From contig NZ_LT963434.1 in the NCBI RefSeq assembly GCF_900199515.1, positions 1,802,180 to 1,834,179 on the forward strand: DNA of 32,000 nt. The letters are read 5' to 3'. The notes beneath the pieces were generated by a model. The model worked only from the letters and a program-made list of their open reading frames with translations. It did not search any database and had not been told where the DNA came from. Shown piece by piece: positions 1,920-31,963 of this stretch; the stretch's first letter is position 1; every line of letters starts with the position of its first letter. The translations under genes were made by a program, and so were the position numbers. This DNA comes from Massilicoli timonensis. Its GTDB lineage: Bacteria > Bacillota_I > Bacilli_A > Erysipelotrichales > Erysipelotrichaceae.

Positions 1920-2360
1920 ATGTTAAAGGACTTGACAAATGAAAAGCTGATCAGGCTTGGCATTGAGGCAAAAGACTGGGAAGATGCGATCAGAAAAGCC
2001 GCACAGCCGCTGCTTGATGAACACAAGATCAAACAGTCCTATATAGACGACATGATCGCAGGTATCAAAGAAGTCGGACCTTATATCGTATTAGCGAAAC
2101 ACATTGCATTGCCGCACGCAAGGCCGGAGGCAGGGGCGCTGGAAAGTGCGATCGGAGTTGCGACCTTAAAAGAACCGGTCGTATTCGGCAATGAAGCAAA
2201 TGATCCGGTCAAATATCTGTTTTGCCTAAGTGCAAAAGATGATATGGAACATTTACAGGCACTTGCGCAACTGGCAGAACTATTTGAAGATCAGGCGTTC
2301 TTTGAACTGTTGGATCGTACAGATGATCCGCAAGAAATTATTGCATACATCAGCAAATAA
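1920..2360 (+). CDS. PTS EIIA component, ascorbate/mannitol-type (PTS_EIIA_2; SgaA/UlaC-like)
   Basis: AGGAGG RBS 9 nt upstream. HIALPHARPE phosphorylatable-His motif. Size of 146 aa is typical of the family. Confidence 0.85.
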   Translation: MLKDLTNEKLIRLGIEAKDWEDAIRKAAQPLLDEHKIKQSYIDDMIAGIKEVGPYIVLAKHIALPHARPEAGALESAIGVATLKEPVVFGNEANDPVKYLFCLSAKDDMEHLQALAQLAELFEDQAFFELLDRTDDPQEIIAYISK

Positions 2361-2374
2361 AGGAGGAAAACAAG

Positions 2375-2653
2375 ATGTATAAAGCATTGGTATGTTGCCG
2401 GGCCGGAATGGGCTCAAGCATGTTGTTAAAGATCAAAGCAGATCAAGTGATCAAAGAAAATAACTTCCCGATCCAGACGGAACATGGGAACTTAGATTCT
2501 TTGGTAGGATTCAGCGGTGATTTAGTCATCACGATGGAAGACTTAGCCGATGAATTGAAAAATCAGGTTCCTTACGCTTTGGGTATTCGCAACATTGTCG
2601 ATAAAGCGGAAATGAAAGAAAAGATCGAAGCATTTCTGAAATCAAAGGAATAA
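2375..2653 (+). CDS. PTS EIIB component, ascorbate-family (SgaB/UlaB-like)
   Basis: AAGGAGG RBS. N-terminal KALVCCRAGMGSS with the active-site Cys loop. 92 aa. Confidence 0.85.
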   Translation: MYKALVCCRAGMGSSMLLKIKADQVIKENNFPIQTEHGNLDSLVGFSGDLVITMEDLADELKNQVPYALGIRNIVDKAEMKEKIEAFLKSKE

Positions 2654-12826: not shown

Positions 12827-14890
12827 ATGAAAAAAATTATTTCCGTATTCATCGTATTTATTTCCTTTTTGGTATTTCATATCAGTTTCCAAGAGTATGG
12901 AGAGATTGAATGGCTCAATTTAGAAAATCCGACAAGCAGCATCAGTAAAGCATTAAATCAAACGTCATATCGGGTGGTTCTTACTGATGATGGCAAGGGT
13001 AATCTGCTGGAGGATATCATGGATTTTGCCGATGAGAACGATTTGATCGTGTTCGGTGGAAGAACCGATCAGCATCCGGATTTTACCGATGTTTCCAGCT
13101 ATTATGTATATACAAAAGATTGCCGGATATTTGATGGAACCTTCTTTTTGTACGATGGCAAGCAGATATGTTTTGATGACCATAACGCATACTATACGAC
13201 TAATGTGAATGATGAGCAGGCAACCGGCTATATTGAAACGGTTAATCGTGAATATCTGAAAGCATACGGCGATAAATTTGAGTTTCATTACTTTGATCGT
13301 TTTTTTGAAAAAGGAGAACAGCCGTTTCTGGCAGCGTGGTTTATCACAGCGCATCCGGAGAAATTTATCTATCAGCTCAATCACTCTAATCTGAAACAGT
13401 ATATAAGAGAAGGAGATGAAGCGAGCATTTTTCATTCCGCCGAAAAACCTGCCGCAGTCAATCAACTGATCGTACTGCTGTTGTTTGTATCATTGATCTC
13501 AATGGTATTGCTGTTTCTATGTAAAATCGTGCAGGAACGAAAAGAGATCCTGATCAGGAAAATGCAGGGGATGTCGTCAATTTCCATTTTCATGAGGAAA
13601 TATTTATGGGAATTACTTGCTTTTTTCCTTATTTATATCGTTGTACAGATCATCTGCTTTTATTTCGCTGTCGGCAAGATCACTGCCGCAACGCATGGAC
13701 TGATTGACATACTGCTTCGCTATTTCACGATTTACAGCTGTATGATACTGGTGTTGGCAGTCGTTATGATCTTGTTCATTTGGAATAGGAAAGAGATTTC
13801 TTCCATCAAGCGAAGCAATACGCAAAAGCAGATTCCGATCATCAATATGATCTTAAAAATCGTTGTGATCATACTGATCATAGAACCGTTGATCAGTTTT
13901 ACAAAAACAGGGATACGGCAAGCACAAACCGCTCTCTATATGAATGAGCAGGGGCATGTATTATCCAATTTATTGTTCATCTATGGCTTGAAAGAAAATA
14001 CCGGCAATTTAGGACCGATCATCATAAAGATGAGAGAGTATTTTAATGAAAACGGGGGCTGGTATCAGGATTGGCGAAAATATATTCCGGAGATAAAATA
14101 TCCGTATGTGGTCGTAAATCAGAATTATCTGGAAAACTATGATCTTTATACAACTGACGGCAAGAAACTGGATCTTTCAAAGTTAAAACAAGATCAATTA
14201 TTAGTTCCGGAAAAGTACCAATATCAAGATTTGAGTTACTATGGAATGGAAAACAACAAGGGGTACTATGATGGGGAAATCATCGTTTTGAAGAACGGCT
14301 ATCATATTGATAATCTTGATGTTTATAGCTCTATGAATGGCTTTCTCGGTGCAGATGATCCGATCATCTATGTGAAAACTAAAATGGATTCTGACTGTCA
14401 ATGGAATTATTCGTACATGACGATCTATTTAGACGATGAGCAAAAAAAGGAAAAATTGAATCAGTACCTGCATGAAGTCGGATTAGAGGATGAGGTACTG
14501 TTGGCGACATCGCAGCAGCACTATCAAATAATGAAAGAGAAAGTAAAAGATGATCTGATATCGGTTTTATCCTTGTTTGTTATTTATTTGGTAATCATCT
14601 GCACCTTCTTATATGAAAATATATTTATCTACTTCATTGAGAACAAGACAAAGTTTGCGGTGCGTTATCTGAATGGAAGCAGTTATTGGGAACGACATGG
14701 CGATATGATAAAACTAAATTTAGGTGCATATGCAATACCGCTTTTATACGGATATTTCCGGCTGCATATCGCATTGTTTGACATATTGGCGTTTACTGCA
14801 TTGGCGATGATAGTGGAATTAGCGGCGGCTTACGTGATCATTACGCATTTTGAAAAAAATCGTATCGTGGAAGTGCTGAAAGGAGAGTAG
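12827..14890 (+). CDS. Large integral membrane protein with two FtsX-like permease modules; architecture of the bacteriocin-associated (DUF1430/TIGR01654-type) membrane proteins
   Basis: 687 aa. N-terminal TM, about 190-aa extracytoplasmic domain, TM cluster, second extracytoplasmic domain of about 200 aa, and a C-terminal TM cluster. Paired with a MacB/LolD-type ATPase. AGGTGA RBS. Confidence 0.65.
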   Translation: MKKIISVFIVFISFLVFHISFQEYGEIEWLNLENPTSSISKALNQTSYRVVLTDDGKGNLLEDIMDFADENDLIVFGGRTDQHPDFTDVSSYYVYTKDCRIFDGTFFLYDGKQICFDDHNAYYTTNVNDEQATGYIETVNREYLKAYGDKFEFHYFDRFFEKGEQPFLAAWFITAHPEKFIYQLNHSNLKQYIREGDEASIFHSAEKPAAVNQLIVLLLFVSLISMVLLFLCKIVQERKEILIRKMQGMSSISIFMRKYLWELLAFFLIYIVVQIICFYFAVGKITAATHGLIDILLRYFTIYSCMILVLAVVMILFIWNRKEISSIKRSNTQKQIPIINMILKIVVIILIIEPLISFTKTGIRQAQTALYMNEQGHVLSNLLFIYGLKENTGNLGPIIIKMREYFNENGGWYQDWRKYIPEIKYPYVVVNQNYLENYDLYTTDGKKLDLSKLKQDQLLVPEKYQYQDLSYYGMENNKGYYDGEIIVLKNGYHIDNLDVYSSMNGFLGADDPIIYVKTKMDSDCQWNYSYMTIYLDDEQKKEKLNQYLHEVGLEDEVLLATSQQHYQIMKEKVKDDLISVLSLFVIYLVIICTFLYENIFIYFIENKTKFAVRYLNGSSYWERHGDMIKLNLGAYAIPLLYGYFRLHIALFDILAFTALAMIVELAAAYVIITHFEKNRIVEVLKGE

Positions 14891-14894
14891 AGCG

Positions 14895-15530
14895 ATGGCA
14901 AAAATAATAGAAGTGAAAAAACTGTGCAAAGCGTTTGGCGATCAGCAGGTATTCGAAGATTTTTATGCGGAAGTAGAAGAAAATGAATTTGTGGCGATTG
15001 CGGGGAAATCCGGAAGCGGGAAATCGACATTGTTGAATATGATCGGTTTGTTGGATAAACCAAGCAGCGGAGATATCATCTTATTTGGGGAAAAGAATAT
15101 CAAACCGTTTTCCATGCGCGCCGAAAAAATGTTGAAGCATCACATCGGTTATTTGTTTCAAAACTTTGCCTTAGTGGAAAATGAGAGCGTCTATTACAAC
15201 ATGATGCTGGCGATAGAAAATCAGAAGATCAAAGATAAGAAAACGAAGATTGCGGAAGCGTTAAAGGCAGTCGGTTTAGAAGGGTATGAAAATAAAAAGG
15301 TCTATAAATGTTCGGGAGGGGAACAGCAGCGGATCTCGATTGCACGGCTTTTGATCAAGCCTTGTGATCTGGTCTTGGCAGATGAACCGACGGGAAGCTT
15401 GGATCACGAAAATAAAAAAATCGTGTTTGACTTATTAAAGAACTTACAGAAGTTAGGGAAAACGATCGTGGTCGTTACACATGATGAAGAGATGATTGCG
15501 GTGGCAGATCGGACGATCATGATTTCATAG
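14895..15530 (+). CDS. ABC transporter ATP-binding protein (MacB/LolD/FtsE-like)
   Basis: Walker A GKSGSGKST, signature CSGGEQQR, Walker B LVLADEPTGSLD and H-loop VVTHD. Starts 4 nt after the permease stop. Confidence 0.9.
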   Translation: MAKIIEVKKLCKAFGDQQVFEDFYAEVEENEFVAIAGKSGSGKSTLLNMIGLLDKPSSGDIILFGEKNIKPFSMRAEKMLKHHIGYLFQNFALVENESVYYNMMLAIENQKIKDKKTKIAEALKAVGLEGYENKKVYKCSGGEQQRISIARLLIKPCDLVLADEPTGSLDHENKKIVFDLLKNLQKLGKTIVVVTHDEEMIAVADRTIMIS

Positions 15531-15595
15531 CGGGGATATGATCATATTGTTTCTGTAATATGATGATATAAATTTGGTGAAAGGAGGAAAAGAAA

Positions 15596-15928
15596 ATGAA
15601 GAAAATCACCAAAACAGTTTTATGCAGTATGGCTTTGATAGCCGCATCGGGAGCAACTGTGTTTGCGGATATGAAGAAGATTCCGGATCCGGGCAGCGTG
15701 ACCTTAAAGTATGGAAGAGCCCAGACAATGGATACGCCAAATGGATTTGGAACACAGGGAAAATGTGATGATGTGAAAGATGCGCGTGTAGCCGTGTATG
15801 TGAAAGATACATACAATAATGTAATGGCAGCCGCCACGGTAAAACCGAATGCGACCGGTAGTTGTACGTGGAATGCACCGACCGGCACCCCACATGAACA
15901 TCACGCAGGCTCGGATTTATATAAGTAA
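15596..15928 (+). CDS. Small secreted protein (110-aa precursor, about 85-aa mature, two Cys); candidate Sec-dependent bacteriocin-like product
   Basis: AAAGGAGG RBS. Signal peptide MKKITKTVLCSMALIAASGATVFA|D. Last gene of the permease/ATPase operon. No family recognisable by eye. Confidence 0.6.
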   Translation: MKKITKTVLCSMALIAASGATVFADMKKIPDPGSVTLKYGRAQTMDTPNGFGTQGKCDDVKDARVAVYVKDTYNNVMAAATVKPNATGSCTWNAPTGTPHEHHAGSDLYK

Positions 15929-16092: not shown

Positions 16093-17325
16093 ATGGGAAA
16101 TAAAATGAAGACGATGTCACAGCAGGTAAAGGAAGAAATCTATTTGTTGTTGGAAACGTATCGTAAGATCAGCGGAAAAAGCGTAAAAGAATTTACAGCA
16201 AATAATGGGAAGATCGGCTGTTCTGTTACGAGCTATCGCAGAATGGGGCATCAAGGGGTTTCTGATTATCAATATTTAGATTTATTGGACTTTCATCAAA
16301 AAACATATTGCCAAACGATTCCGTTAAACGAACAAGAGCAGCATACTGTCAGGGAGTTACATCAGGCAGTTGTTTTTTATCGTTATGATACCTGCATCGC
16401 TTTGATTGATGAATTGACTGCACAATTAAAATCCAGTCAGGATATACGGGTGTATTTACTGTGGCTGTTTTTGGAAGAGCTAAGAGAATATTTTGAAAGT
16501 ATCAACTATTTAGACGAAGAGCAGATCAGGGCATATCTTAGCATTGCGCATTTATATCCGACAGAAATAAAGGATTTGATAGAGTTTTATTGTGTTTATT
16601 CAGCACAGAAGGTATCACGCTTATTGATGCATGAGATTTATCAAAATACTGAAATAGGATATAGTAAATTTCCGCCAGTTGTTGTGCATGCAATGGCGTA
16701 CGATTTTAATTATGAAGAATTTGAACGCGGGATTATAAAAAGTGCCGGTCTGAAAAAACAGGCAATGGAGACTGACAATCATGTACTGCTGTTTGAATAT
16801 TATGACAGCATGATCACTTACTATATTCAATGTGAACCGGATAAGGTTAAAGATGCATTGATCAGTATGGAAGAACTAATAAATAAGTCTTCTTTTCCAA
16901 ATGCGAAAAAAATCCAATTTTATAACAACGCAGCACATAATTATGTGTTTTTGAATTGTTTTGATCAAGCTCTGTATTATTTTGAACGCTATCTTCATGA
17001 GGCAAGTAAATTAAAATTGTGTTTAGATGGAAATATTTATACCAATATAGTTTTTTGTAAACATATGTGTGATATGCCATATGATATAGATTTAGAAGTA
17101 TTAACAACAAACAAATTTTATAGTTTGGCAGACTATTACTTATATGAATATTTTATGGAACAGTCTTTGCTTGAAACAAGAGATAAGAAAATTCGTTTTA
17201 TCAGAAATAAAATAATCAAGCACTTTAGTAAAGATGATAACTTCACTAAATATATGGTTCGATTAGAATTGATGAGAATAATCGATCAAAGTAAAAATTT
17301 AGATTTGATCCTACAAACGATGTAA
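16093..17325 (+). CDS. Cytoplasmic HTH (XRE-like) plus long helical-repeat (TPR-like) regulator; candidate RRNPP-type peptide receptor (paralog 1)
   Basis: 410 aa with no TM or signal peptide. N-terminal YRKISGKSVKEFT...CSVTSYRRM resembles an XRE HTH. The remainder is rich in Y/L/E/F helical repeats. Collinear similarity to the 29852-31066 product. Followed by a propeptide gene. Confidence 0.65.
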   Translation: MGNKMKTMSQQVKEEIYLLLETYRKISGKSVKEFTANNGKIGCSVTSYRRMGHQGVSDYQYLDLLDFHQKTYCQTIPLNEQEQHTVRELHQAVVFYRYDTCIALIDELTAQLKSSQDIRVYLLWLFLEELREYFESINYLDEEQIRAYLSIAHLYPTEIKDLIEFYCVYSAQKVSRLLMHEIYQNTEIGYSKFPPVVVHAMAYDFNYEEFERGIIKSAGLKKQAMETDNHVLLFEYYDSMITYYIQCEPDKVKDALISMEELINKSSFPNAKKIQFYNNAAHNYVFLNCFDQALYYFERYLHEASKLKLCLDGNIYTNIVFCKHMCDMPYDIDLEVLTTNKFYSLADYYLYEYFMEQSLLETRDKKIRFIRNKIIKHFSKDDNFTKYMVRLELMRIIDQSKNLDLILQTM

Positions 17326-17437: not shown

Positions 17438-17465
17438 CATATCGTTAATAGGGAGGTTGTGTTTA

Positions 17466-17576
17466 ATGAGAAAAATGTTATTAGGTACTTTGATGTTCGT
17501 AATGCTGGCAGCTCTTGCTACACCGGTTTCGGCAGATGAGCCGATGCCTATGGGTACTTGGAACGAAAAAGTATAA
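17466..17576 (+). CDS. Unannotated 36-aa secreted propeptide (candidate quorum-sensing pheromone precursor 1): MRKMLLGTLMFVMLAALATPVSADEPMPMGTWNEKV
   Basis: GGGAGG RBS 9 nt upstream. Canonical Sec signal peptide with a VSA|DE cleavage site. 13-aa exported tail. Terminator immediately after the stop. Located 140 nt downstream of the regulator. Confidence 0.7.
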   Translation: MRKMLLGTLMFVMLAALATPVSADEPMPMGTWNEKV

Positions 17577-17603
17577 GATCATAGAACGCTATGGTCTTTT
17601 TTT
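17577..17603 (+). terminator. Rho-independent terminator after propeptide gene 1
   Basis: GATCATAG / CTATGGTC stem (one G-U pair), AACG loop, T7. Confidence 0.75.
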
Positions 17604-21122: not shown

Positions 21123-21965
21123 ATGTTTAGAAGTGTCCGTTATGTATTAAGTGAGAACTTTAGAAATCTGAATCGGATCTTTTCCATCTCTAAATACGAA
21201 CTGCTGGCGGATATGCGCGATACCAGACTGGGACTGTTCTGGAACTTCGCCAATCCGGTGATTCAGGTCTTGACCTATTGGCTGGTATTCGGCGGTATTT
21301 TGCGAGGCGATCGCGGTTCTATTTTAGGCATTGCCTATATCGACTGGATGATCGTCGGCATTTTTGTGTGGTTTTTTGTATCGAAGTGCATTACCGGCGG
21401 ATGCAATGCCATTCATGCCAAGGTGAATGTCATCACAAAGATGAAATTTCCGGTAGCGATCTTGCCGGTTACGGTCGTATTGAAGGAGTTTTTTAATCAT
21501 TTGTGCATGCTGCCGATCGTATTGGCGGTCTATGTCTTTCATGCCGGCTTTTCTTTAGGCGACATCGACTGGCTGATGCTTGGCTATTATTTGTTCTGCA
21601 CCTTGTTTTTATGTATTTCGATCTCCATGGTAACTTCGGTATTGACGATGTTTACCCGCGATGTAAAAAAACTGGTAAATTCCTGCATGCGTCTGCTTTT
21701 ATATTTGACGCCGGTGCTCTGGGAGCCGGCAGAGGCGCTGGTGAAAAGCGCTTTGGCAGACCAGGCTTATACCGTTATCAATATTTTGAAGATCAATCCG
21801 CTTTATTATCTGGTAAAGGGATATCGCGACTGTTTTTACTACCATTATGGCTTCAGTACGGTCCCAAACCAGACGATCGTATTTTGGACGGTTACTTTGA
21901 CTTTGTTTGTAATCGGCAGTTTCTTGATGTATAAGTTCAAACATAAATTCATTGATATGTTCTAA
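21123..21965 (+). CDS. tagG: Teichoic acid / polysaccharide ABC-2-type export permease
   Basis: 280-aa, 6-TM ABC-2 permease directly upstream of a TagH-like ATPase and tagD. Confidence 0.8.
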   Translation: MFRSVRYVLSENFRNLNRIFSISKYELLADMRDTRLGLFWNFANPVIQVLTYWLVFGGILRGDRGSILGIAYIDWMIVGIFVWFFVSKCITGGCNAIHAKVNVITKMKFPVAILPVTVVLKEFFNHLCMLPIVLAVYVFHAGFSLGDIDWLMLGYYLFCTLFLCISISMVTSVLTMFTRDVKKLVNSCMRLLLYLTPVLWEPAEALVKSALADQAYTVINILKINPLYYLVKGYRDCFYYHYGFSTVPNQTIVFWTVTLTLFVIGSFLMYKFKHKFIDMF

Positions 21966-21975
21966 GGAGTAAAGC

Positions 21976-22803
21976 ATGGAAAAAGAATGTGCGGTCGTAT
22001 TTGACCATGTGTCAAAAATTTACAAACTGAAGAAAAAAGGAAAAAACGCAGGGAAACCGGTCTATTTTTATGCGCTCAAAGACATCAGTTTTCAAATACC
22101 CAAAGGGGAGGTTGTCGGAGTGCTGGGGACAAACGGATCGGGGAAAAGCACGCTTTCCTCTATCTTAGCGGGGATTTCCAGCATCGACAGCGGAACGATA
22201 AAGATCAGCGGCGAACAGGCGCTCATCGCAATCAATTCCGGTTTGAACAACCAACTGACCGGATTAGAAAACATCAAGCTGAAAGGAGCGCTGCTTGGTT
22301 TATCGAAAAAACGGATTAAAGAGATCATTGACGGAGTGATCGATTTTGCGGAATTAGGTGATTTCATCGATCAGCCGGTAAAAAAATATTCCAGCGGGAT
22401 GAAGAGCCGTTTAGGATTTGCGATCTCGATCAACTTAAATCCTGATATCATCATTATCGACGAGGCGCTTTCCGTTGGCGACAAGGGCTTTGCGGAGAAG
22501 TGCATGAAGCGTATGAATGCGTTTAAGGAAGAAGGAAAGACGATCTTTTTCATTTCTCATTCGCTCAGTCAAGTCCGAAGGTTTTGCAATATGGGGCTTT
22601 GGATCGAAGGCGGGCAGATGATGGAATATGATGAAATCAATGCGGTGTGCGATCATTATGACGCTTATGTGGAAGCAGACAGACAGCGCAGCGAGGAAGA
22701 AAAAAAGGCATTCCGTAAAAAGAAGTTTCAAAAGCGTGTTGTTAAAAACGTAAAAGTCAGCTTGATTGAACGGGTGCTGCTGAAAGTGAAAGGAGGGAAA
22801 TAA
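21976..22803 (+). CDS. tagH: Teichoic acid export ATP-binding protein
   Basis: Walker A GTNGSGKST, signature YSSGMKSRL, Walker B IIIIDEALSVGD. Genomic context. Confidence 0.85.
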   Translation: MEKECAVVFDHVSKIYKLKKKGKNAGKPVYFYALKDISFQIPKGEVVGVLGTNGSGKSTLSSILAGISSIDSGTIKISGEQALIAINSGLNNQLTGLENIKLKGALLGLSKKRIKEIIDGVIDFAELGDFIDQPVKKYSSGMKSRLGFAISINLNPDIIIIDEALSVGDKGFAEKCMKRMNAFKEEGKTIFFISHSLSQVRRFCNMGLWIEGGQMMEYDEINAVCDHYDAYVEADRQRSEEEKKAFRKKKFQKRVVKNVKVSLIERVLLKVKGGK

Positions 22804-23195
22804 TGAGAAAGGTCATAACATATGGAACTTTTGATTTATTTCATGTCGGACATTTGAATATTTTGAAAAGAGCGAAGGCACAGGGCGATTATCTGGTCGT
22901 TGCGGTATCCTCTGATGCTTTCAATGCCGGGAAGGGCAAGAAAGCCTATTATTCGCAGGAAGATCGCATGGAGATCTTAAAGGCGATCAAATATGTGGAT
23001 GAAGTGATCTTAGAAGAATCATGGGATCAGAAGATCCGTGATGTAAAAGAACATGATATTGATGTCTTTGTCATGGGCGATGACTGGAAAGGGAAGTTTG
23101 ACTTTTTGAAGGATTATTGCGAAGTGGTGTACTTGCCGCGTACGGAGGGCATTTCCTCTACCAAGATCAAACAGGATCTCAGCATCAAGTCCTGA
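22803..23195 (+). CDS. tagD: Glycerol-3-phosphate cytidylyltransferase
   Basis: 130 aa. The TYGTFDLFHVGHLNILKRAK (HxGH) and RTEGISST motifs are characteristic of TagD/TarD. Confidence 0.9.
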   Translation: MRKVITYGTFDLFHVGHLNILKRAKAQGDYLVVAVSSDAFNAGKGKKAYYSQEDRMEILKAIKYVDEVILEESWDQKIRDVKEHDIDVFVMGDDWKGKFDFLKDYCEVVYLPRTEGISSTKIKQDLSIKS

Positions 23196-23207
23196 TCGGA
23201 GCTTGAC

Positions 23208-25820
23208 ATGGAAACGGGAAATAGGATGAACCGCGATCTTGGCTTAGTGAAGATCGAAGGCAGCCGCAATGCCTATTATTATCTGGCGGCAGAAACAGCA
23301 GCGCTGCGGCTCAATGTGGAAAACGGCTTCTTTTCGGTGCGTACTTTATTACAGGAAAATGCGCATCTGATGGGAGCGCATACGACCTTTCGTCTTATGG
23401 AAATCGAGATGCAGGGGGAGCGTGCGGCTGTAATCGAGAATACCCAGGAAGCACGTACCTTGCTTTGGAACGGTGCGCTTTATCGTTATGCGTTAAGGCA
23501 GGATGAGCAAGGTGCGCTTTTTGACATAGAAAAGCTGCCGTTTGGCAAAGGAATTTCATGTACGGGACTTGGCATCGAGGATGGTAAGATCAAACTGTAT
23601 TTAGATCAGGCAGTGGAAGGACTTTGTCTGATCGCCGTGCATCAGGAAGAAAGCATCGAATTGGCGATGCTGCAGGATCACGCATTTACCATTGAGCCAT
23701 CGGCTTTCACAAAGCTGCATGGGTTGCAATATGAATTATTTTTTAAGAAAGCGGAGCGGTTATTCCCGATACAGGTGGAAGAGACACTGCACTGCATGAT
23801 TCCTTTCCTGCAAGAGCAGGCGGCAAGTCTTGTAAAGATCGATATGGGAAAACAGGCAACGCTTACTTTTACAGGCATTGAGGAGGCGCTGCATCCGGAA
23901 ATCTATGCGCTGATCGCTCACGATGAACAAATCGAGGTAAGCGGAAAGTGGAATGCGCCGCTTTCTTTGATACAGAACTGTGAAAAAACAATGCTTTTTT
24001 GCGCCGGCGATGACAGTGCGATAGAAAGCGTGGATATGGACGGTGATGAAAGCGAGTTTACCTTGCATATTACCGAAAAACAGCTGGAAGAAATGCAGAA
24101 GCGTTTTTCCAAACGCTGGGATCTGTATTTGGAATTAAGACGAGGCGATGATGTGATCGCCATGCTGCCGATCGTCAAAGGGAAAACCTTAAATGCCGCT
24201 ATCCTGTATGAAGCGACATGGGGCAGCGAAACGCTTTGTTCTTTGCAGCTAAGCGCCACTAAGCAAAAAGGCAATGTCTATGTGCAGTTCCTTGCGCCGG
24301 TTCATATCAGCAAGATCAATTATATGGAGCATTTATTTGGGCATTTGCGTATCCATATGCGGATGCAGCAGGATGTAAGCGCCATTTATCGCGGTTTGTC
24401 ATATCAGGTGAAAATAGGCGATGCTTGGCAAAGCGCCAGACTGCAAAAACGCGGTGCAAGAACACTGCTGCTGAAGGTTCCCTGCAAAGACTTAGAAGCG
24501 ATGATCGCACAGCTTCGGCAATCCGGATTGGAAATGATGCTCGGCTATCGGGAGCAGCGCTATTGCTATACGATCAAAGAGCTGGATTACAGCCGTATCT
24601 ATGCGACTTTTTCTCAGCATGTCTTTCAATCACGCCGTTACCGTACCTTAGGCAAGCGTTTGTACCGTCTGTTTTTGAAATTGCCGGTGCGTAAAAACAA
24701 GATCTTGTTTGAAAGCTTTTTAGGGCGAAATGTATCCGGCAATCCGAAATATCTCTATGAATATTTATGCAACCATGAGATCGGCAAGTCTTATCGCATG
24801 TACTGGATCTTAAATGATCCCGATGAAACGATCAGCGCGCCCGGTAAAAAGATCCTGCGCCGTTCGATTCGCTACTATTATCATATGGCGACAGCCGGTT
24901 TTTGGATTTTCAATACACGTCAGGACAGTGATATCATCAAGCGCAAAAAGACGATTTACTTACAGACATGGCATGGCACGCCGCTAAAACGTCTTGGTTT
25001 TGATATGGACGATGTGAACATGGCATCACAGAGCAATATCGTAGAATACAAGCGGCAGTTTTATGCCAATTCCCGCCGCTGGGATTATCTGCTTGCGCAG
25101 AATCAGTATTCCGCCGATATATTCAGACGCTGCTTCGTATTCCGTAAATCGTTATTGGCATTGGGCTATCCTGCTAATGACGTGCTGTTTACGAAAAACA
25201 ATGAACAGGATATTCGCTCATTAAAGGAAAAGATGGGGATCCCGCTCGATAAAAAAGTCATTTTATATGCGCCGACATGGCGAGATGATCATTTTGTGCG
25301 CAAAGGCTACTATCAGATGAAGATGGAATTGGATCTGAAATTGATGCAGGAGCGTTTAGGTGAAGAATATGTGGTGCTGTTAAGAATGCACTATCTGATC
25401 ATGAATGTTTTGGATATTCACGCTTACCAGGGCTTCGCCTATGATTTCAGTGCGGGGTCTGATATTCAGGAACTGTATTTGGTATCCGATCTGTTGATTA
25501 CCGACTATTCATCGGTCATGTTCGACTATGCCAATCTGCGCCGTCCGATCGTGTTTTATACTTATGATATCGACGCTTATCGCGATTCCCTGCGCGGCTT
25601 CTATTTCGATTTTGAAAAAGAGGCGTGCGGTCCGATCTGCCGTACGACTTCGGAAGTGGTGGAAGCCATTGAGAAACAGGCGATCTGGCGTGAGGAATAC
25701 GCGGAAAAGATCGCTTCCTTCCATCAGAAATTCAACCATATCGATGATGGCAACGCTTCTAAACGCATATTAGAAATCGTACTCGATCGAAGCAGACAGG
25801 AGCAGCACGATGATCATTAA
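23208..25820 (+). CDS. CDP-glycerol glycerophosphotransferase (TagF-like polymerase) with an N-terminal region of about 500 aa of unknown function
   Basis: The C-terminal ~370 aa (NPKYLYEYL...TWHGTPLKRLG...YAPTWRD...ITDYSSVMFDY) match the Glyphos_transf family. The N-terminal half has no motif I recognise. Confidence 0.8.
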   Translation: METGNRMNRDLGLVKIEGSRNAYYYLAAETAALRLNVENGFFSVRTLLQENAHLMGAHTTFRLMEIEMQGERAAVIENTQEARTLLWNGALYRYALRQDEQGALFDIEKLPFGKGISCTGLGIEDGKIKLYLDQAVEGLCLIAVHQEESIELAMLQDHAFTIEPSAFTKLHGLQYELFFKKAERLFPIQVEETLHCMIPFLQEQAASLVKIDMGKQATLTFTGIEEALHPEIYALIAHDEQIEVSGKWNAPLSLIQNCEKTMLFCAGDDSAIESVDMDGDESEFTLHITEKQLEEMQKRFSKRWDLYLELRRGDDVIAMLPIVKGKTLNAAILYEATWGSETLCSLQLSATKQKGNVYVQFLAPVHISKINYMEHLFGHLRIHMRMQQDVSAIYRGLSYQVKIGDAWQSARLQKRGARTLLLKVPCKDLEAMIAQLRQSGLEMMLGYREQRYCYTIKELDYSRIYATFSQHVFQSRRYRTLGKRLYRLFLKLPVRKNKILFESFLGRNVSGNPKYLYEYLCNHEIGKSYRMYWILNDPDETISAPGKKILRRSIRYYYHMATAGFWIFNTRQDSDIIKRKKTIYLQTWHGTPLKRLGFDMDDVNMASQSNIVEYKRQFYANSRRWDYLLAQNQYSADIFRRCFVFRKSLLALGYPANDVLFTKNNEQDIRSLKEKMGIPLDKKVILYAPTWRDDHFVRKGYYQMKMELDLKLMQERLGEEYVVLLRMHYLIMNVLDIHAYQGFAYDFSAGSDIQELYLVSDLLITDYSSVMFDYANLRRPIVFYTYDIDAYRDSLRGFYFDFEKEACGPICRTTSEVVEAIEKQAIWREEYAEKIASFHQKFNHIDDGNASKRILEIVLDRSRQEQHDDH

Positions 25821-26997
25821 GGCAAAAAAAGCGATCCGCGCAATACTGGCGTTTTTGTATCGTCATACGTATCGTCATGTAAAAGTAAAAGAAAGAACGG
25901 TATTTTTCCTGTCTTTTCATGGACGGGGATACAGCGACAATCCTAAAGCCATCTACGAATATATGCGCAGCTGCGGTGAGTATGCGAACTATCGCTTTAT
26001 CTGGGCGCTGCGTGATCCTAAGCGCAAGATCGAGGGCGCTAAGGTCATTCGCTACAACGGTCCGTTTTACTTCTATTATCTGATGCGTTCACAATACTGG
26101 ATCGTAAACTGCAAACTGGCAGATTATTTCCTGAAGAAAGACGAGCAGATTTATTTACAGACGTGGCATGGCACACCGTTAAAAAAATTGGCGCATGACA
26201 TTGATGTGAGCGATGATACGACTTTTTATCGCACCAAGATGAGCAAAGCGCAGATGCAGACTACCTATGACAGGGATGTGGCAAAATACAATTATATGAT
26301 CAGCCCCAATCCTTTCTGCACCGAGGTGTTTCAAAGCGCTTTTCGCATCGACCGGGCACGCTTGATCGAAACCGGCTATCCGCGTAATGATTTTCTTTCT
26401 CATTTCAGCGAGCAGGATGTTTTACAAATGAAGCGGAAGCTGCATCTTCCGACCGATAAAAAAGTCATTTTATACGCGCCGACATGGCGGGACAACAGTT
26501 ATCGTCTATCCGGCTATACCTTTCAGCTGGAAGTTGATTTTCTAAAATGGAAGCAGGTGTTAGGCGATTCGTATATCGTATTGTTCAAGCCGCATTATCT
26601 GATCGTCAATACCTTTGATATGAGTCAGGTAAAAGACTTTGTTTACGAGATCGACGCCAAGGCAGACATCGCCCCGCTTTATCCGCTTGCGGATCTGCTG
26701 ATCACCGATTATTCCAGTGTCTTTTTCGATTACGCGATCCTAAAGCGGCCGATCTATTTCTATATGTATGACATCGAAAGCTATGCAAATGAGCTGCGCG
26801 GCTTTTATTTCGATTTGTATGAGACATTGCCGGGGCGCATCTATACGGAGGAAGACTTGTTGCTGGCGGATATTGCCGGCGGTGTATATGAAGAAAACCG
26901 TATTTCCGCATTTCATAAGCGTTTCCATGTGCATGAAGACGGATGGGCAAGCAAGCGTGTTTGTGATATAGTATTTAAGAAAGAACAGACGAGATGA
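25810..26997 (+). CDS. CDP-glycerol glycerophosphotransferase-family protein (TagF/TagB paralog)
   Basis: NPKAIYEYM, TWHGTPLKKL, YAPTWRD and ITDYSSVFFDY are collinear with the catalytic half of the upstream gene. 11-nt overlap. Confidence 0.85.
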   Translation: MIIKAKKAIRAILAFLYRHTYRHVKVKERTVFFLSFHGRGYSDNPKAIYEYMRSCGEYANYRFIWALRDPKRKIEGAKVIRYNGPFYFYYLMRSQYWIVNCKLADYFLKKDEQIYLQTWHGTPLKKLAHDIDVSDDTTFYRTKMSKAQMQTTYDRDVAKYNYMISPNPFCTEVFQSAFRIDRARLIETGYPRNDFLSHFSEQDVLQMKRKLHLPTDKKVILYAPTWRDNSYRLSGYTFQLEVDFLKWKQVLGDSYIVLFKPHYLIVNTFDMSQVKDFVYEIDAKADIAPLYPLADLLITDYSSVFFDYAILKRPIYFYMYDIESYANELRGFYFDLYETLPGRIYTEEDLLLADIAGGVYEENRISAFHKRFHVHEDGWASKRVCDIVFKKEQTR

Positions 26998-27006
26998 GGT
27001 GAAAGC

Positions 27007-28119
27007 ATGTCTCTTGCCAGATTGGTATTAAATATGATCATGGGTCCGATGTATGTCATTACCCTGCTGTTTCCCATTAAGCCGAATAAGATCGCTTTTA
27101 TTTCTTTGAGCAGCGAGAAGCTGGAAGGAGATTTCAAGATCATCGCCCGCAAGCTGGAAGAACATCCGGAATATGAAGTCGTATCGGTATTGGCGAAGTT
27201 CAAGCGCAATCTGCCCGGCTGTTTTGCCTATTTCTTTGCGCTGTTAAAACAGTTGTACCATATCAATACTTCTCATTTGGTATTATTGGATTCCAATAAC
27301 TATGCGGTTTCTTATTTCAAGAAAAAGCAGGTAAAGGTATTGCAGGTGTGGCATGCGAGCGGAGCGATCAAAAAGTTCGGCAATGATGTCAAACGCAGTT
27401 ATCCGATCAAAAACTATGACTATGTACTGGCATGCGCCGATATTTGGAAGCCGTATTATGCCAGCGCCTTCGGGGTAAAGGAAGAACAGGTGATTCCGAT
27501 CGGGATTCCGCGAACGGACCGCATCTTTTCAAAAAAGCGGATGAAGAAATATCAGAAAGAGATCGAAGCATTGTATCCGCAGATCTTAGGTCATAAGGTC
27601 GTCTTATATGCACCTACTTTCCGCGGCAATGTCATGCAGGACTATCATTATGAAAAGATCGACTTAAAGGCGATGAAACAAACGCTTGGCGAAGCGTACT
27701 GCATTATTTATAAACTGCATCCGTTGTTAAGAGAAGCATCGCTCGATGAGATGAATGATCCGATGATCATCAATGCCAATGATATCAGCATCAAGCGCTT
27801 ATTTGCGGTCAGCGATTATTTGATCAGTGATTATTCCAGTGTGATCTTTGAATATTCGGTACTGGGGAAACCGGTCTTGTTTTATACACCGGATCTTGCG
27901 CAGTATCAGGAAGAGGTCGGCATGTATCTGGACTATGAAGCAATCATGCCAGGACCGATCTGCTATGATGAAAAGGAGCTGAGCGCTTATATCTTAGCTG
28001 ATCAGTTTGACTTAAAGCGCATCAAGCAGTTCAGAAATCAGTTTTTCCGTTATCGGGATGGGAAATCGACAAAGCGGGTCATGGAATTCATTGATGAGAT
28101 CATGCAGACACCGTTATAA
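27007..28119 (+). CDS. CDP-glycerol glycerophosphotransferase-family protein (TagB-like, more divergent)
   Basis: VWHASGAIKKFG, YAPTFRG and ISDYSSVIFEY are variants of the same family motifs. 370 aa. Confidence 0.8.
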   Translation: MSLARLVLNMIMGPMYVITLLFPIKPNKIAFISLSSEKLEGDFKIIARKLEEHPEYEVVSVLAKFKRNLPGCFAYFFALLKQLYHINTSHLVLLDSNNYAVSYFKKKQVKVLQVWHASGAIKKFGNDVKRSYPIKNYDYVLACADIWKPYYASAFGVKEEQVIPIGIPRTDRIFSKKRMKKYQKEIEALYPQILGHKVVLYAPTFRGNVMQDYHYEKIDLKAMKQTLGEAYCIIYKLHPLLREASLDEMNDPMIINANDISIKRLFAVSDYLISDYSSVIFEYSVLGKPVLFYTPDLAQYQEEVGMYLDYEAIMPGPICYDEKELSAYILADQFDLKRIKQFRNQFFRYRDGKSTKRVMEFIDEIMQTPL

Positions 28120-29851: not shown

Positions 29852-31066
29852 GTGCTGTCATTACAGAAAAAAAGAAATCTTTATCATGAATTAGAAATGT
29901 ATCGCCTCTGGCATTGCTGGTCGCAAAATCGTTTTGTTTCAGACATGATATCTTATGCGACGTATGCCAAAATGAAGGAAGCGAATAATCGCATACAGGA
30001 CCAGAGCTACGTTGATTTACTGTCATATTATGGGTTTGACATTGAACATGATCTGGTCTATCACGAAATAAAAGAACAAATCGTATCGCTGCATGATGCT
30101 TTGAGCAGATGTGAATTAGAAAGCAGCAGTGCATTGCTTGAACAATTAGAACATCATTTATCTATACAAAATACCTGTATAGAGAGCATCAATCTGCGAT
30201 TGTTTTTGCATAGACTGTTACAGTATGTAAAGAATGATGTTTATTTGAGTGAAAGCCAAATTGAAGCATTGTTATCTTATTATCAGAATAAGCCAAAACC
30301 ATTGAAGGACCTCATTTTATATTATATGATCTATTCTGCTACTAAGATCAGCTTTACCTATCAGCAATATTTATATGAGAAGATAGAAGCATTACGCGTA
30401 TCGGATTATTTGCCGATCATGGTTCATTATATGGGATATTTGATCAACTGCAAACAATTTCAAAAAGCGTTGTTATTAGGAAACGAAATCTATCAAAAAG
30501 CGCATGAAACAAAAAATCACTATATGCTGTTTGAGTATTATGAGAATATGCTTGCTTATTATATTCGATATGAACCAAATCAAGTAGAGAAAACCCAGAA
30601 ACAGATAGAAGCAATCATGAAGCAAATCCATTTTCCGAGAATCAAAAAGATGCAATACTATCGTAATTATGCCAAACGGTGTATTTCAAAGCATGAATAT
30701 CAAAAGGCTTTAGCCGCATTTCAAGAGATACAAGAATACAGTTTACAAGGGAATGTTCATGATCGTGTGAGCATTATATATAATATCACTTTTTGCGAAA
30801 GCCAACTTCAAATTCCTTATAGCATCGCTTATGATTATGCATTGAAAAAAGAACATTTTGAAAGCAAGGCTGATTATTATTTGTTTCAATATTTACTAAA
30901 GAAGAACGATATGACAAATGCACAACGGGTTCGTTATTTGCATAAGATTGCGAAAGTCATGAAAGATCATGAGGATTATACGAAATTTCAAATAAGGGAA
31001 GAATTATATATGATTAGTATGAAAGATAAAAAGGCAGATCTTTTCCGCTATCTGGAGAATAGATAA
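29852..31066 (+). CDS. HTH (XRE-like) plus helical-repeat regulator; candidate RRNPP-type peptide receptor (paralog 2)
   Basis: GTG start 6 nt after GGGAGGAGG. N-terminal YRLWHCWSQNRFVSDMISYATYAKMKEANNRI resembles an XRE HTH. Blocks shared with paralog 1 include HYMLFEYYENMLAYYIRYEPNQV vs HVLLFEYYDSMITYYIQCEPDKV and LKDLILYYMIYSATKIS vs IKDLIEFYCVYSAQKVS. Confidence 0.65.
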   Translation: MLSLQKKRNLYHELEMYRLWHCWSQNRFVSDMISYATYAKMKEANNRIQDQSYVDLLSYYGFDIEHDLVYHEIKEQIVSLHDALSRCELESSSALLEQLEHHLSIQNTCIESINLRLFLHRLLQYVKNDVYLSESQIEALLSYYQNKPKPLKDLILYYMIYSATKISFTYQQYLYEKIEALRVSDYLPIMVHYMGYLINCKQFQKALLLGNEIYQKAHETKNHYMLFEYYENMLAYYIRYEPNQVEKTQKQIEAIMKQIHFPRIKKMQYYRNYAKRCISKHEYQKALAAFQEIQEYSLQGNVHDRVSIIYNITFCESQLQIPYSIAYDYALKKEHFESKADYYLFQYLLKKNDMTNAQRVRYLHKIAKVMKDHEDYTKFQIREELYMISMKDKKADLFRYLENR

Positions 31067-31194: not shown

Positions 31195-31317
31195 ATGATG
31201 AAAAGAACTAAGATATTATTAAAATTAGCATTGCTTTTCTGCTTGATCGTTTTGACGGCAAATGCAGTAGAAAGCATGCAACCGCGTTCAAGAGAAACGT
31301 GGATAGAAAAAAATTAA
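31195..31317 (+). CDS. Unannotated 40-aa secreted propeptide (candidate pheromone precursor 2): MMKRTKILLKLALLFCLIVLTANAVESMQPRSRETWIEKN
   Basis: Sec signal peptide with an ANA|VES cleavage site. 16-aa tail whose end, ETWIEKN, parallels GTWNEKV of peptide 1. Lies 128 nt after the regulator. The RBS is poor (GGAAAGGAG is 20 nt upstream), which lowers confidence. Confidence 0.55.
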   Translation: MMKRTKILLKLALLFCLIVLTANAVESMQPRSRETWIEKN

Positions 31318-31342: not shown

Positions 31343-31963
31343 ATGAAAAAAAAGATATTTATAACGGTATTGTTATGTTTGTTTTCAATTTCACCGATTT
31401 CTTTGCGAGCCAATGAACTTGAAAGAAACACGGTGGAATCAGATCATGAAATTGTAATAGAAAACGTTGATGAATTAAGTGATGCGGAAATTGATAGAAT
31501 CATGAAAAAAGAAACCGAAAAGTATTTAGAGCGTGTTGTTCCGGGTTATGCGGATGAAAAGAAAGTAAGAGCCAGACCGACCTATGAAACGGTCTACGGA
31601 ACAGCCAAAACGGTAACGATTGGCGGATATGCCGGAAATCAGCCGGCAGGAGGCAGAAGATTTAACACAGGAGGAGGCTTTTGGTTCTCTGATAGCGGTG
31701 GACCTACTGCTTCATTAAATGTATCTTTTCCTGCACCTTATGATTTGATCAGTGTTTCCGTTACGCTGGGATCAGTTGGAAGTAGCGGCGTATTTGTACT
31801 AGCTCCTGATACGACCCATTATTTTAAGCTTTATGTTTCCAAAAAAGTTCGTGTACAGCCATATGTCGTATATTATACAAACAGCCAAGGGAAGAAAACC
31901 GTATGGCTTAGAAGTAAAACTACGACAGTAACGAAGGTGGATCAATATGCAAAGCAAGTATAA
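31343..31963 (+). CDS. Secreted protein of unknown function (206-aa precursor), Gly/Ser/Thr-rich beta-type C-terminal domain
   Basis: GAGAGGAG RBS. Signal peptide MKKKIFITVLLCLFSISPISLRA|NE. Begins 25 nt after propeptide gene 2 with no intervening terminator. Confidence 0.65.
   Translation: MKKKIFITVLLCLFSISPISLRANELERNTVESDHEIVIENVDELSDAEIDRIMKKETEKYLERVVPGYADEKKVRARPTYETVYGTAKTVTIGGYAGNQPAGGRRFNTGGGFWFSDSGGPTASLNVSFPAPYDLISVSVTLGSVGSSGVFVLAPDTTHYFKLYVSKKVRVQPYVVYYTNSQGKKTVWLRSKTTTVTKVDQYAKQV

Follow-up and report, generated by a model that had tools for sequence, protein, structure and literature searches.

A conserved C-terminal W-x-E-K-x motif in two candidate pro-pheromone genes that follow paralogous putative RRNPP-type receptor genes of Massilicoli timonensis

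Introduction

In the PlcR/PapR system, the peptide precursor is exported by Sec and its gene directly follows that of the receptor; its C-terminal heptapeptide acts as the signal in vivo and combines an invariant core, P-F/Y-E (aromatic plus acidic), with variable residues that define the pherotype (PMC2441798). Massilicoli timonensis is a member of the Erysipelotrichaceae from the human gut (PMC6796691). Here we analyzed a stretch of 32,000 nucleotides (nt) of its genome (contig NZ_LT963434.1, forward-strand positions 1,802,180 to 1,834,179), referred to below as the window, in which two paralogous genes for candidate cytoplasmic receptors, R1 and R2, are each followed by a small open reading frame (ORF). 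An earlier reading of the window (the original prediction) had taken these small ORFs, here named peptide genes 1 and 2, for propeptide genes with a shared C-terminal heptad.

In the AimR/AimP and Rap/Phr systems, the propeptide gene neighbours that of a receptor built of tetratricopeptide repeats (TPR), which binds the C-terminal 5-6 residues of the Sec-exported propeptide, and within the allele families of these systems one part of the peptide is common and the rest varies. Not every RRNPP pheromone is strictly C-terminal, as NprX illustrates. Most RRNPPA pheromones are located at the propeptide C terminus, in agreement with what the original prediction had assumed, and multi-copy Phr propeptides have also been described (PMC9765709). 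In the TprA/PhrA system, which has a regulator of the PlcR type, the signal is the C-terminal 10 residues of Sec-exported PhrA and the adjoining lactococcin-972-like sceABC (streptococcin E) locus is controlled; some S. mitis and S. pneumoniae strains carry two divergent TprA/PhrA copies, the second located by secreted/surface-protein genes (bioRxiv 10.64898/2025.12.10.693483). The SHP and XIP precursors depend on PptAB for export and on Eep for processing, not on Sec and signal peptidase I (PMC10075063).

Results

Peptide gene 1 (window positions 17466..17576, plus strand) encodes 36 residues followed by a stop codon (translation MRKMLLGTLMFVMLAALATPVSADEPMPMGTWNEKV), and peptide gene 2 (31195..31317, plus strand), which is unannotated in public collections, encodes 40 residues followed by a stop codon (MMKRTKILLKLALLFCLIVLTANAVESMQPRSRETWIEKN). 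Signal peptides were called by a rule-based heuristic on all small ORFs of the window (n=397), of which 12 were flagged, peptides 1 and 2 among them. Both peptides have a basic N-terminal end, a hydrophobic core, and an A-x-A-type site, with cleavage predicted between VSA and DE in peptide 1 and between ANA and VE in peptide 2. The predicted signal peptides span positions 17466-17534 and 31195-31266 (plus strand) and are followed by the pro-regions DEPMPMGTWNEKV (17535-17573, plus strand) and VESMQPRSRETWIEKN, respectively. The predicted tails of 13 and 16 residues are those of the original prediction and obey the -3/-1 rule. When the two peptides were aligned from their stop codons, T, W, E, and K coincided in the C-terminal heptads G-T-W-N-E-K-V (17553..17573, plus strand) and E-T-W-I-E-K-N (31294..31314, plus strand); translation of both ORFs confirmed that these residues stand at equal distances from the C terminus. 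The upstream parts of the tails had been said to differ. This holds for most of their length, which is unrelated, but not for their beginning, as both pro-regions start with x-E-x-M (DEPM in peptide 1 and VESM in peptide 2) right after the predicted signal-peptidase site.

Beyond peptides 1 and 2, TW.EK had no other occurrence in the six-frame translation of the window. Comparison of the last 7 residues among the 397 small ORFs gave at least 4 identities in 44 of 78,606 pairs; with 44 such pairs in an all-against-all comparison, a 4/7 match is not rare and therefore on its own is weak evidence. For a pair fixed beforehand by position, the match rate was ~5.6e-4, and shuffling of the post-signal tails of peptides 1 and 2 gave P = 6.5e-4. 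The decisive support for a non-chance origin comes from the recurrence of the motif at related loci. Locus L008, a Logan contig, carries a receptor gene whose product is 29-37% identical to R1, R2, and a further homologue, P0002. At 114 nt 3' of the receptor stop codon, a small ORF (L008 positions 1258-1341) with its own Shine-Dalgarno sequence and ATG encodes MYALLMYFIKLSFNNIPTPIPDWYEKD, which ends in PDWYEKD. In this tail, W, E, and K occupy the same distances from the stop codon as in peptides 1 and 2, and D replaces T; the conserved core is therefore W-x-E-K-x, and the heptad originally proposed, x-T-W-x-E-K-x, stands for its W, E, and K but not for its T. The TW-EK pattern, which the original prediction needed to see conserved at homologous loci, is thus kept by L008 in these three residues. 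When the L008 tail was included, three-way identity at 3 or more positions was obtained in 0 of 200,000 shuffles. Furthermore, the relaxed pattern W.[ED][KR].{0,3} directly before a stop codon had just 3 occurrences in six frames of the window and 14 loci, each directly 3' of a receptor homologue. These data confirmed that the shared tail is real and non-random.

The peptide ORFs were also examined for the signals of a gene. By direct sequence reading, peptide gene 1 is preceded by a Shine-Dalgarno sequence, AGGGAGG (17450..17456, plus strand), 9 nt before the ATG, and an intrinsic terminator consisting of a hairpin and a T-run (17575..17598, plus strand) lies immediately 3' of its stop codon. 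In a collection of 15 billion proteins, gene calls for the exact peptide 1 product come from 488 contigs. Peptide 2, from either ATG start, was uncalled by any gene caller in the same collection. Together with the signal-peptide architecture of both ORFs and the recurrence of the motif at the third locus, the data support the view that peptide ORFs 1 and 2 behave as real genes, as had been proposed from their conservation.

Natural variation of peptide 1 was then inspected. Its 90% cluster has five other members: one ending in ...GTWNEKE, one in ...GTWYEKV, one in ...PMAMGTWNEKV, one with the substitution M4V, and a longer form starting further upstream. None of the five alters T, W, E, or K, and all changes fall in the signal peptide, the pro-region, or the x positions, in line with the conserved scaffold carrying variable positions that had been suggested. 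The strain represented by locus L022 is genuinely diverged, differing from the window by 21 single-nucleotide polymorphisms (SNPs) in 1,424 nt (98.5% DNA identity). Just one SNP lies in the 111-nt peptide 1 gene, and it is non-synonymous, changing N to Y at an x position (GTWYEKV); R1 of this strain has four amino-acid substitutions. Two further SNPs lie in the terminator (window positions 17585 and 17587), both in the loop, and the stem is thereby kept. Three other strains (L018-L020), which match the window at 99.9% DNA identity, encode an unchanged peptide 2; as the strains with the R2 variant P0040 are this similar, they are uninformative on peptide 2 variation.

R1 (16093..17325, plus strand) is a receptor candidate of 410 residues, with a degenerate putative XRE-type helix-turn-helix (HTH) domain and a TPR-like solenoid, and matches a 'hypothetical protein' of M. 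timonensis at 100% identity. R2 (29852..31066, plus strand; 404 residues; GTG start with GGAGG upstream) is RefSeq WP_102269221.1, likewise a 'hypothetical protein'. The two share 31% identity (E=4e-50) and are paralogues. Peptide genes 1 and 2 follow them on the same strand after gaps of 140 nt and 128 nt, respectively.

Word-indexed protein searches returned almost nothing but the query, and exhaustive HMMER alone reached the family: the R1+R2 profile retrieved just 22 cluster representatives among 1.84 billion proteins. A scan of the alignment of the close subfamily (R1, R2, P0002, P0003, and P0004) against genome and metagenome contigs gave no confirmed relatives, and tblastn of R1 against plasmid and phage collections gave nothing. 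Distant family members show an obvious XRE-type HTH signature, and Pfam assigned TPR_1 to 8 and HTH_3 to 1 of 20 aligned family members. HHalign joined the close subfamily to the distant group over their full length (387 columns, probability 99.9%, E=2e-31). Apart from designed consensus TPRs, PlcR (2qfc, E=2.4e-7) was the PDB entry that the combined family profile matched best, with an alignment spanning PlcR residues 4-147, that is, the HTH and the first repeats. Further PDB matches were the HTH domains of HipB and PezA, and Rgg2/3 over ~205 residues at E=3e-3 to 2e-2, and the profile aligned to consensus TPR at positions 267-300. The profile comparisons thus support a relation of the R1/R2 family to HTH+TPR proteins and to PlcR at the family level. 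Likewise at the family level, an N-terminal XRE-type HTH is the candidate DNA-binding domain of R1 and R2; no Pfam HTH model was matched by R1 or R2 themselves, and R1 had no match among PDB sequences.

An AlphaFold2 model of R1, built from a 20-sequence alignment, was all-helical and confident (predicted local distance difference test 90.7, predicted template modelling score 0.85). It shows a small N-terminal helical domain, made up at residues 10-67 of 4-5 short helices and an insertion, and then a solenoid of helical hairpins. In a Foldseek search of this model against the PDB, the matches were TPR solenoids, the top 50 including AimR, PlcR, RapF/J, ComR, and plasmid/phage Rap proteins. Judged from the model, R1 and R2 appear to carry a C-terminal TPR-like superhelical domain, the structural feature looked for in receptors of this kind. 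At the family level, the HHalign result, the PlcR match, and the modelled HTH+TPR fold support the RRNPP premise on which the original prediction was built.

The two cassettes were also compared with the five-part signature used by RRNPP_detector (PMC10075063), and four of its parts were found: the peptides, at 36 and 40 residues, lie within 10-100 residues; peptides 1 and 2 carry a signal peptide of the Sec/signal peptidase I type according to the rule-based calls, which the L008 homologue lacks; the receptors, at 410 and 404 residues, lie within 250-500 residues; and receptor and peptide genes are adjacent. The fifth part is a match to a TPR hidden Markov model (HMM) at E<1e-5 with coverage >65%, and neither R1 nor R2 matched Pfam TPR even at E<=0.1. 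HMM-based RRNPP surveys would therefore miss R1 and R2. No mention of Massilicoli or of the peptide was found in the supplementary files searched of the RRNPP_detector paper (PMC10075063).

The survey of small ORFs at receptor homologues was extended to the whole family. In 8 of 10 distinct loci with sufficient flanking sequence, namely those of R1, R2, L002, L013, L014, L015, L016, and L017, a small ORF with a signal peptide lies beside the receptor gene; the other two are L008, whose small ORF has no clear signal peptide, and L001, with no ORF. Loci L009-L012 are too short or chimeric to display the region downstream of the receptor. The same-strand order of receptor and then peptide recurs in L002, L008, L013, L015, L016, and L017, and the arrangement is divergent in L014. 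In a second subfamily (P0007, P0011, and P0016), the adjacent ORFs (L013 3810-3983; L014 2141-2308, minus strand; L015 3670-3834) encode 54-57 residues with a signal peptide and a cysteine-rich middle (C-x-C...C...H), and their C termini are alike, of the form GG-x-(x)-F-acidic (NGGEDFWE, SGGYFDD, and DGGEFED). As this subfamily has a conserved tail of its own, C-terminal conservation is a recurring feature of the family. Two distant members (L016 and L017) are accompanied by signal-peptide ORFs of 39 and 44 residues with unrelated tails. Thus, a gene for a small secreted peptide beside the receptor gene is a family trait, and the tails appear conserved within subfamilies and different between them, as expected of cognate ligand-receptor pairs. 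The conservation anticipated in such a survey was accordingly seen for W, E, and K in L008 and did not extend to the tail associated with P0003, to P0002, which lacks a peptide ORF, or to the distant subfamilies, which have other tails.

Several of these loci show further peculiarities. In L008 (3-1144) and L009 (3-1274), the receptor homologue is broken into two reading frames (302+78 and 304+102 residues), and P0004 and P0009 are two halves of one receptor gene; these may be pseudogenes or assembly errors. Downstream of the L008 peptide gene lie a signal-peptide ORF and a frame resembling the one after peptide gene 2. In L012 (503-544), an ORF beginning MCIRDRL fuses a MATE C terminus and an RsmF fragment to the receptor gene; MCIRDRL being a typical translation of the Nextera adapter, L012 is probably a chimeric assembly whose synteny is untrustworthy. 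The P0003 cassette lies on an apparent mobile element (L002 1-2312 and 6582-7074; also L003-L007), with serine recombinase (resolvase) and Mob_Pre relaxase genes upstream of the cassette. This element is inserted beside PTS EIIA/EIIB genes resembling those at window positions 1920-2653, and in some of its copies the N-terminal (HTH) part of the receptor is a separate ORF of 43 residues.

Upstream of R1, a putative lactococcin-972-type pair of genes for a membrane protein and an ABC ATPase (12827..15530, plus strand) are candidate regulated genes. The 687-residue membrane protein (12827-14890, plus strand) matches DUF1430/TIGR01654, 'bacteriocin-associated integral membrane protein', scoring 41.4 bits against Pfam DUF1430 (cut-off 28.2) and 69 bits against TIGR01654 (cut-off 189). 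The best model for the ABC ATPase (14895-15530, plus strand) is TIGR03608, 'lactococcin-972-group bacteriocin export', at 250.8 bits (cut-off 254.85). Between the ABC ATPase gene and R1, a gene at 15596..15928 (plus strand) encodes a 110-residue signal-peptide protein, named DUF5666-containing in UniRef, which is a candidate bacteriocin-like cargo or target. Similarly, in L013, L014, and L015 a secreted protein of ~110 residues and a membrane protein of ~680 residues adjoin the receptor homologue; a weak precomputed DUF1430 match exists for the large neighbours in L013 and L014, and none is recorded for L015. The ~110-residue proteins of L013-L015 are mutually homologous, and the window protein is weakly similar to them, with a C-terminal H-x-H in common. 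Neither the window protein nor its L013-L015 counterparts matched Pfam Lactococcin_972 or a PDB sequence, and locus 1 thus has no recognizable lactococcin-972 bacteriocin precursor. An inverted repeat of 13 nt (ATATGATCATATT / AATATGATGATAT, 8-nt spacer; window 15536-15569) lies past the stop codon of the ABC ATPase gene and before the gene of the 110-residue protein and could be an operator or terminator-like.

At locus 2, a gene with a strong Shine-Dalgarno sequence for a 206-residue signal-peptide protein (31343..31963, plus strand) starts 25 nt after peptide gene 2, with which it is probably co-transcribed; it is a candidate target, and its product matched no Pfam or NCBIfam model. In other strains (L018 3596-4006), a gene for a 136-residue protein with an N-terminal membrane anchor overlaps and follows the 206-residue protein gene. 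A 7-bp inverted repeat 5' of peptide gene 1 (AATCTCT/AGAGATT) was considered and rejected, as it has no counterpart at locus 2 and is broken by an L022 SNP. The two receptor loci are separated by a block of wall teichoic acid genes (window 21123-28119) comprising an ABC-2 permease and ATPase (TagG/H-like), a cytidylyltransferase (TagD-like), and three CDP-glycerol glycerophosphotransferase paralogues.

Discussion

Our analysis makes it fairly probable that the two small genes encode PapR/PhrA-like propeptides, the C-terminal part of which would be a pheromone cognate to RRNPP-type receptors R1 and R2. R1 and R2 would be paralogous PlcR/TprA-like cytoplasmic receptors, each joining an XRE-like HTH at the N terminus to a peptide-binding solenoid of the TPR-like kind, and the small gene downstream of each would encode its cognate pre-pro-pheromone. 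We infer a chain that leads from secretion and the cleavage sites through trimming, import, and receptor binding to the regulon and the sign of its regulation, and that would run as follows. Sec would export the 36- and 40-residue precursors, and signal peptidase I would cleave after VSA and ANA to yield pro-peptides of 13 and 16 residues. Extracellular trimming would probably generate a C-terminal peptide of ~6-8 residues containing [T/D]-W-x-E-K-x, which an oligopeptide permease would re-import; by analogy with PapR and PhrA, and with indirect support from the C-terminal conservation, the mature signal may comprise the C-terminal 5-10 residues and be bound by the receptor. The peptide would sit in the TPR groove, with W, E, and K as a common anchor and the residues between and beside them (positions -7, -4, and -1 from the peptide end) setting the specificity between the two systems. 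Receptor occupancy would then alter the transcription of the peptide gene and nearby genes for secreted proteins. The putative targets are 12827-15928 at locus 1, with the lactococcin-972-type ABC/immunity genes among them, and the region from 31343 onward at locus 2.

Among described systems, PlcR/PapR and TprA/PhrA offer close parallels. PlcR/PapR shares with the window cassettes a receptor gene followed by a same-strand small propeptide gene, a propeptide with predicted Sec export, and, at the family level, a receptor with a putative XRE-type HTH and degenerate TPRs, PlcR being the natural protein in the PDB that the family profile matched best. However, R1 and R2 are ~120 residues longer (404-410 residues, against 293 for the PDB chain of PlcR), cannot be recognized individually as PlcR homologues, and have an HTH with an insertion and without the usual XRE signature; furthermore, the W-x-E-K core is unrelated to L-P-F-E-F, and no PlcR-box-like palindrome was found at the two loci. 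TprA/PhrA is alike in architecture and gene context: there are two cassettes, one beside TIGR03608/TIGR01654-type genes (locus 1) and one beside the gene of a secreted protein (locus 2). Here, the ABC/immunity genes of the window lie upstream rather than downstream of the receptor, the candidate cargo is without a lactococcin-972 match, and the host belongs to another class (Erysipelotrichia). PhrA tails (...LDVGKAD) are unlike W-x-E-K-x. AimR and Rap structures were among the Foldseek matches of the R1 model, no better than generic TPR proteins; the window shows no phage or plasmid context, which sets it apart from AimR/AimP and Rap/Phr, and Rap proteins are without an HTH. Rgg/SHP and ComR/XIP also pair HTH + TPR-like receptors with a short peptide that signals through its C-terminal part. 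Short and with no basic residues at its N-terminal end, the L008 peptide is reminiscent of the leaderless hydrophobic precursors of the SHP type. Peptides 1 and 2 differ from the hydrophobic SHPs in having charged, hydrophilic tails behind a predicted signal of the classical Sec type.

A number of observations weigh against the propeptide-receptor interpretation. On the side of the peptides, the ribosome-binding context of peptide gene 2 is the weaker one, with a poorly spaced AGGAG 20 nt 5' of the ATG; the motif-bearing independent sequences number three in all; and the L008 peptide is without a basic N-region and a canonical Sec signal. P0003 (loci L002-L007), the closest homologue accompanied by a peptide gene, is followed by a 38-residue signal-peptide ORF with an unrelated tail, ...SNEISVPLLSDRR (...PLLSDRR). 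For P0002 (L001), a peptide ORF is absent both from the 263 nt that lead up to a convergent MATE gene and from the region upstream of the receptor gene. Each peptide 1 variant comes from a single contig and the L022 contig has a coverage of ~2.3x, and the variation pattern is therefore suggestive only. On the side of the receptors, R1 and R2 individually went unrecognized by Pfam and NCBIfam, and a profile of the close subfamily alone matched nothing in the PDB; the link to PlcR is consequently transitive, via the distant members. The top Foldseek matches of the R1 model were Rpn6 and LGN, and RRNPP proteins matched at E ~1e-2 with TM-scores of 0.18-0.42; since these are no better, Foldseek cannot separate an RRNPP receptor from a generic TPR protein. 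In addition, no convincing operator-like inverted repeat common to both loci was found, neither an Opp system nor a processing protease is encoded in the window, and no experimental evidence on such a system in M. timonensis was found in the literature.

Four other explanations were considered. We regard it as unlikely that the peptides are real, secreted, and signal via the receptors with W-x-E-K-x being something other than the receptor-binding core, for example a processing or export determinant, with an active species that is internal or longer, as in NprX, or that has its last residue or residues trimmed. The last residue is indeed the most variable position (V, E, N, and D), and the x-E-x-M right after the predicted cleavage site is common to both pro-regions; but only 13-16 residues are left after signal removal, the sole conserved block among them is C-terminal, and the C-terminal end is the signal in PlcR/PapR, TprA/PhrA, AimR/AimP, and most Rap/Phr systems.

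We give little credence to the idea that the shared tail is a remnant of cassette duplication, free of functional constraint and not marking the active peptide. The paralogy of R1 and R2 makes it almost certain that the peptides are paralogous too, and the E and K codons are identical and AT-rich (gaa and aaa) in all three genes, W having a single codon. Yet the receptors have diverged to 29-37% identity and the signal peptides and pro-regions beyond recognition, with the positions of W, E, and K remaining exact in three lineages; the within-species variants spare T, W, E, and K; and the T codon has undergone a synonymous change (act in peptide 1 versus acg in peptide 2).

It appears very improbable that the small ORFs encode secreted effectors, bacteriocin-like or immunity-related, rather than signals, with the large neighbours acting as non-binding regulators or scaffolds. 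Such a role would suit the lactococcin-972-type ABC/immunity pair adjoining R1, the large membrane-protein genes by the receptors in L013-L015, and the second-subfamily peptides, which are longer, cysteine-rich, and more toxin-like. However, hydrophilic, cysteine-free tails of 13-16 residues are atypical of bacteriocins, the secreted ~110- and 206-residue proteins are better cargo candidates, and the adjacency of receptor and then peptide is strict even without ABC/immunity genes (L016 and L017).

Finally, that one or both small ORFs arose by chance with a coincidental motif is scarcely credible: the lack of gene calls and the poorly spaced Shine-Dalgarno sequence of peptide 2 and the 44 tail pairs with a 4/7 match in the window would fit such a view, but the pair was fixed beforehand by its position after paralogous genes (P ~6e-4), the third locus repeats both motif and position, both ORFs have signal-peptide architecture, and peptide 1 has a Shine-Dalgarno sequence, a terminator, and calls on 488 contigs.

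Returning to the propeptide-receptor interpretation, a more far-reaching proposal is possible and is put forward tentatively: that these receptors form an unrecognized PlcR-like clade invisible to sequence models and served by hydrophilic W-x-E-K-x pheromones, and that the two M. timonensis cassettes are an intragenomic pherotype pair switching on lactococcin-972-type bacteriocin/immunity genes and secreted-protein genes. Differing at three positions of the scaffold, the two cassettes would either discriminate or cross-talk. The clade so defined would comprise ~22 clusters at 50% identity, with one member, from M. timonensis, traced to a named organism. The system is very narrowly distributed and unannotated, and its mechanism would itself be conventional, not new.

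If the interpretation is true, a human-gut species of the Erysipelotrichaceae has two candidate peptide quorum-sensing circuits, each of which offers a concrete synthetic ligand (...TWNEKV and ...TWIEKN), and bacteriocin-like competition genes would be a plausible output. For the receptor family, it would mean that HMM-based RRNPP surveys miss whole clades, as R1 and R2, which appear to be full-length homologues of HTH+TPR proteins with a modelled fold to match, fail the TPR HMM.

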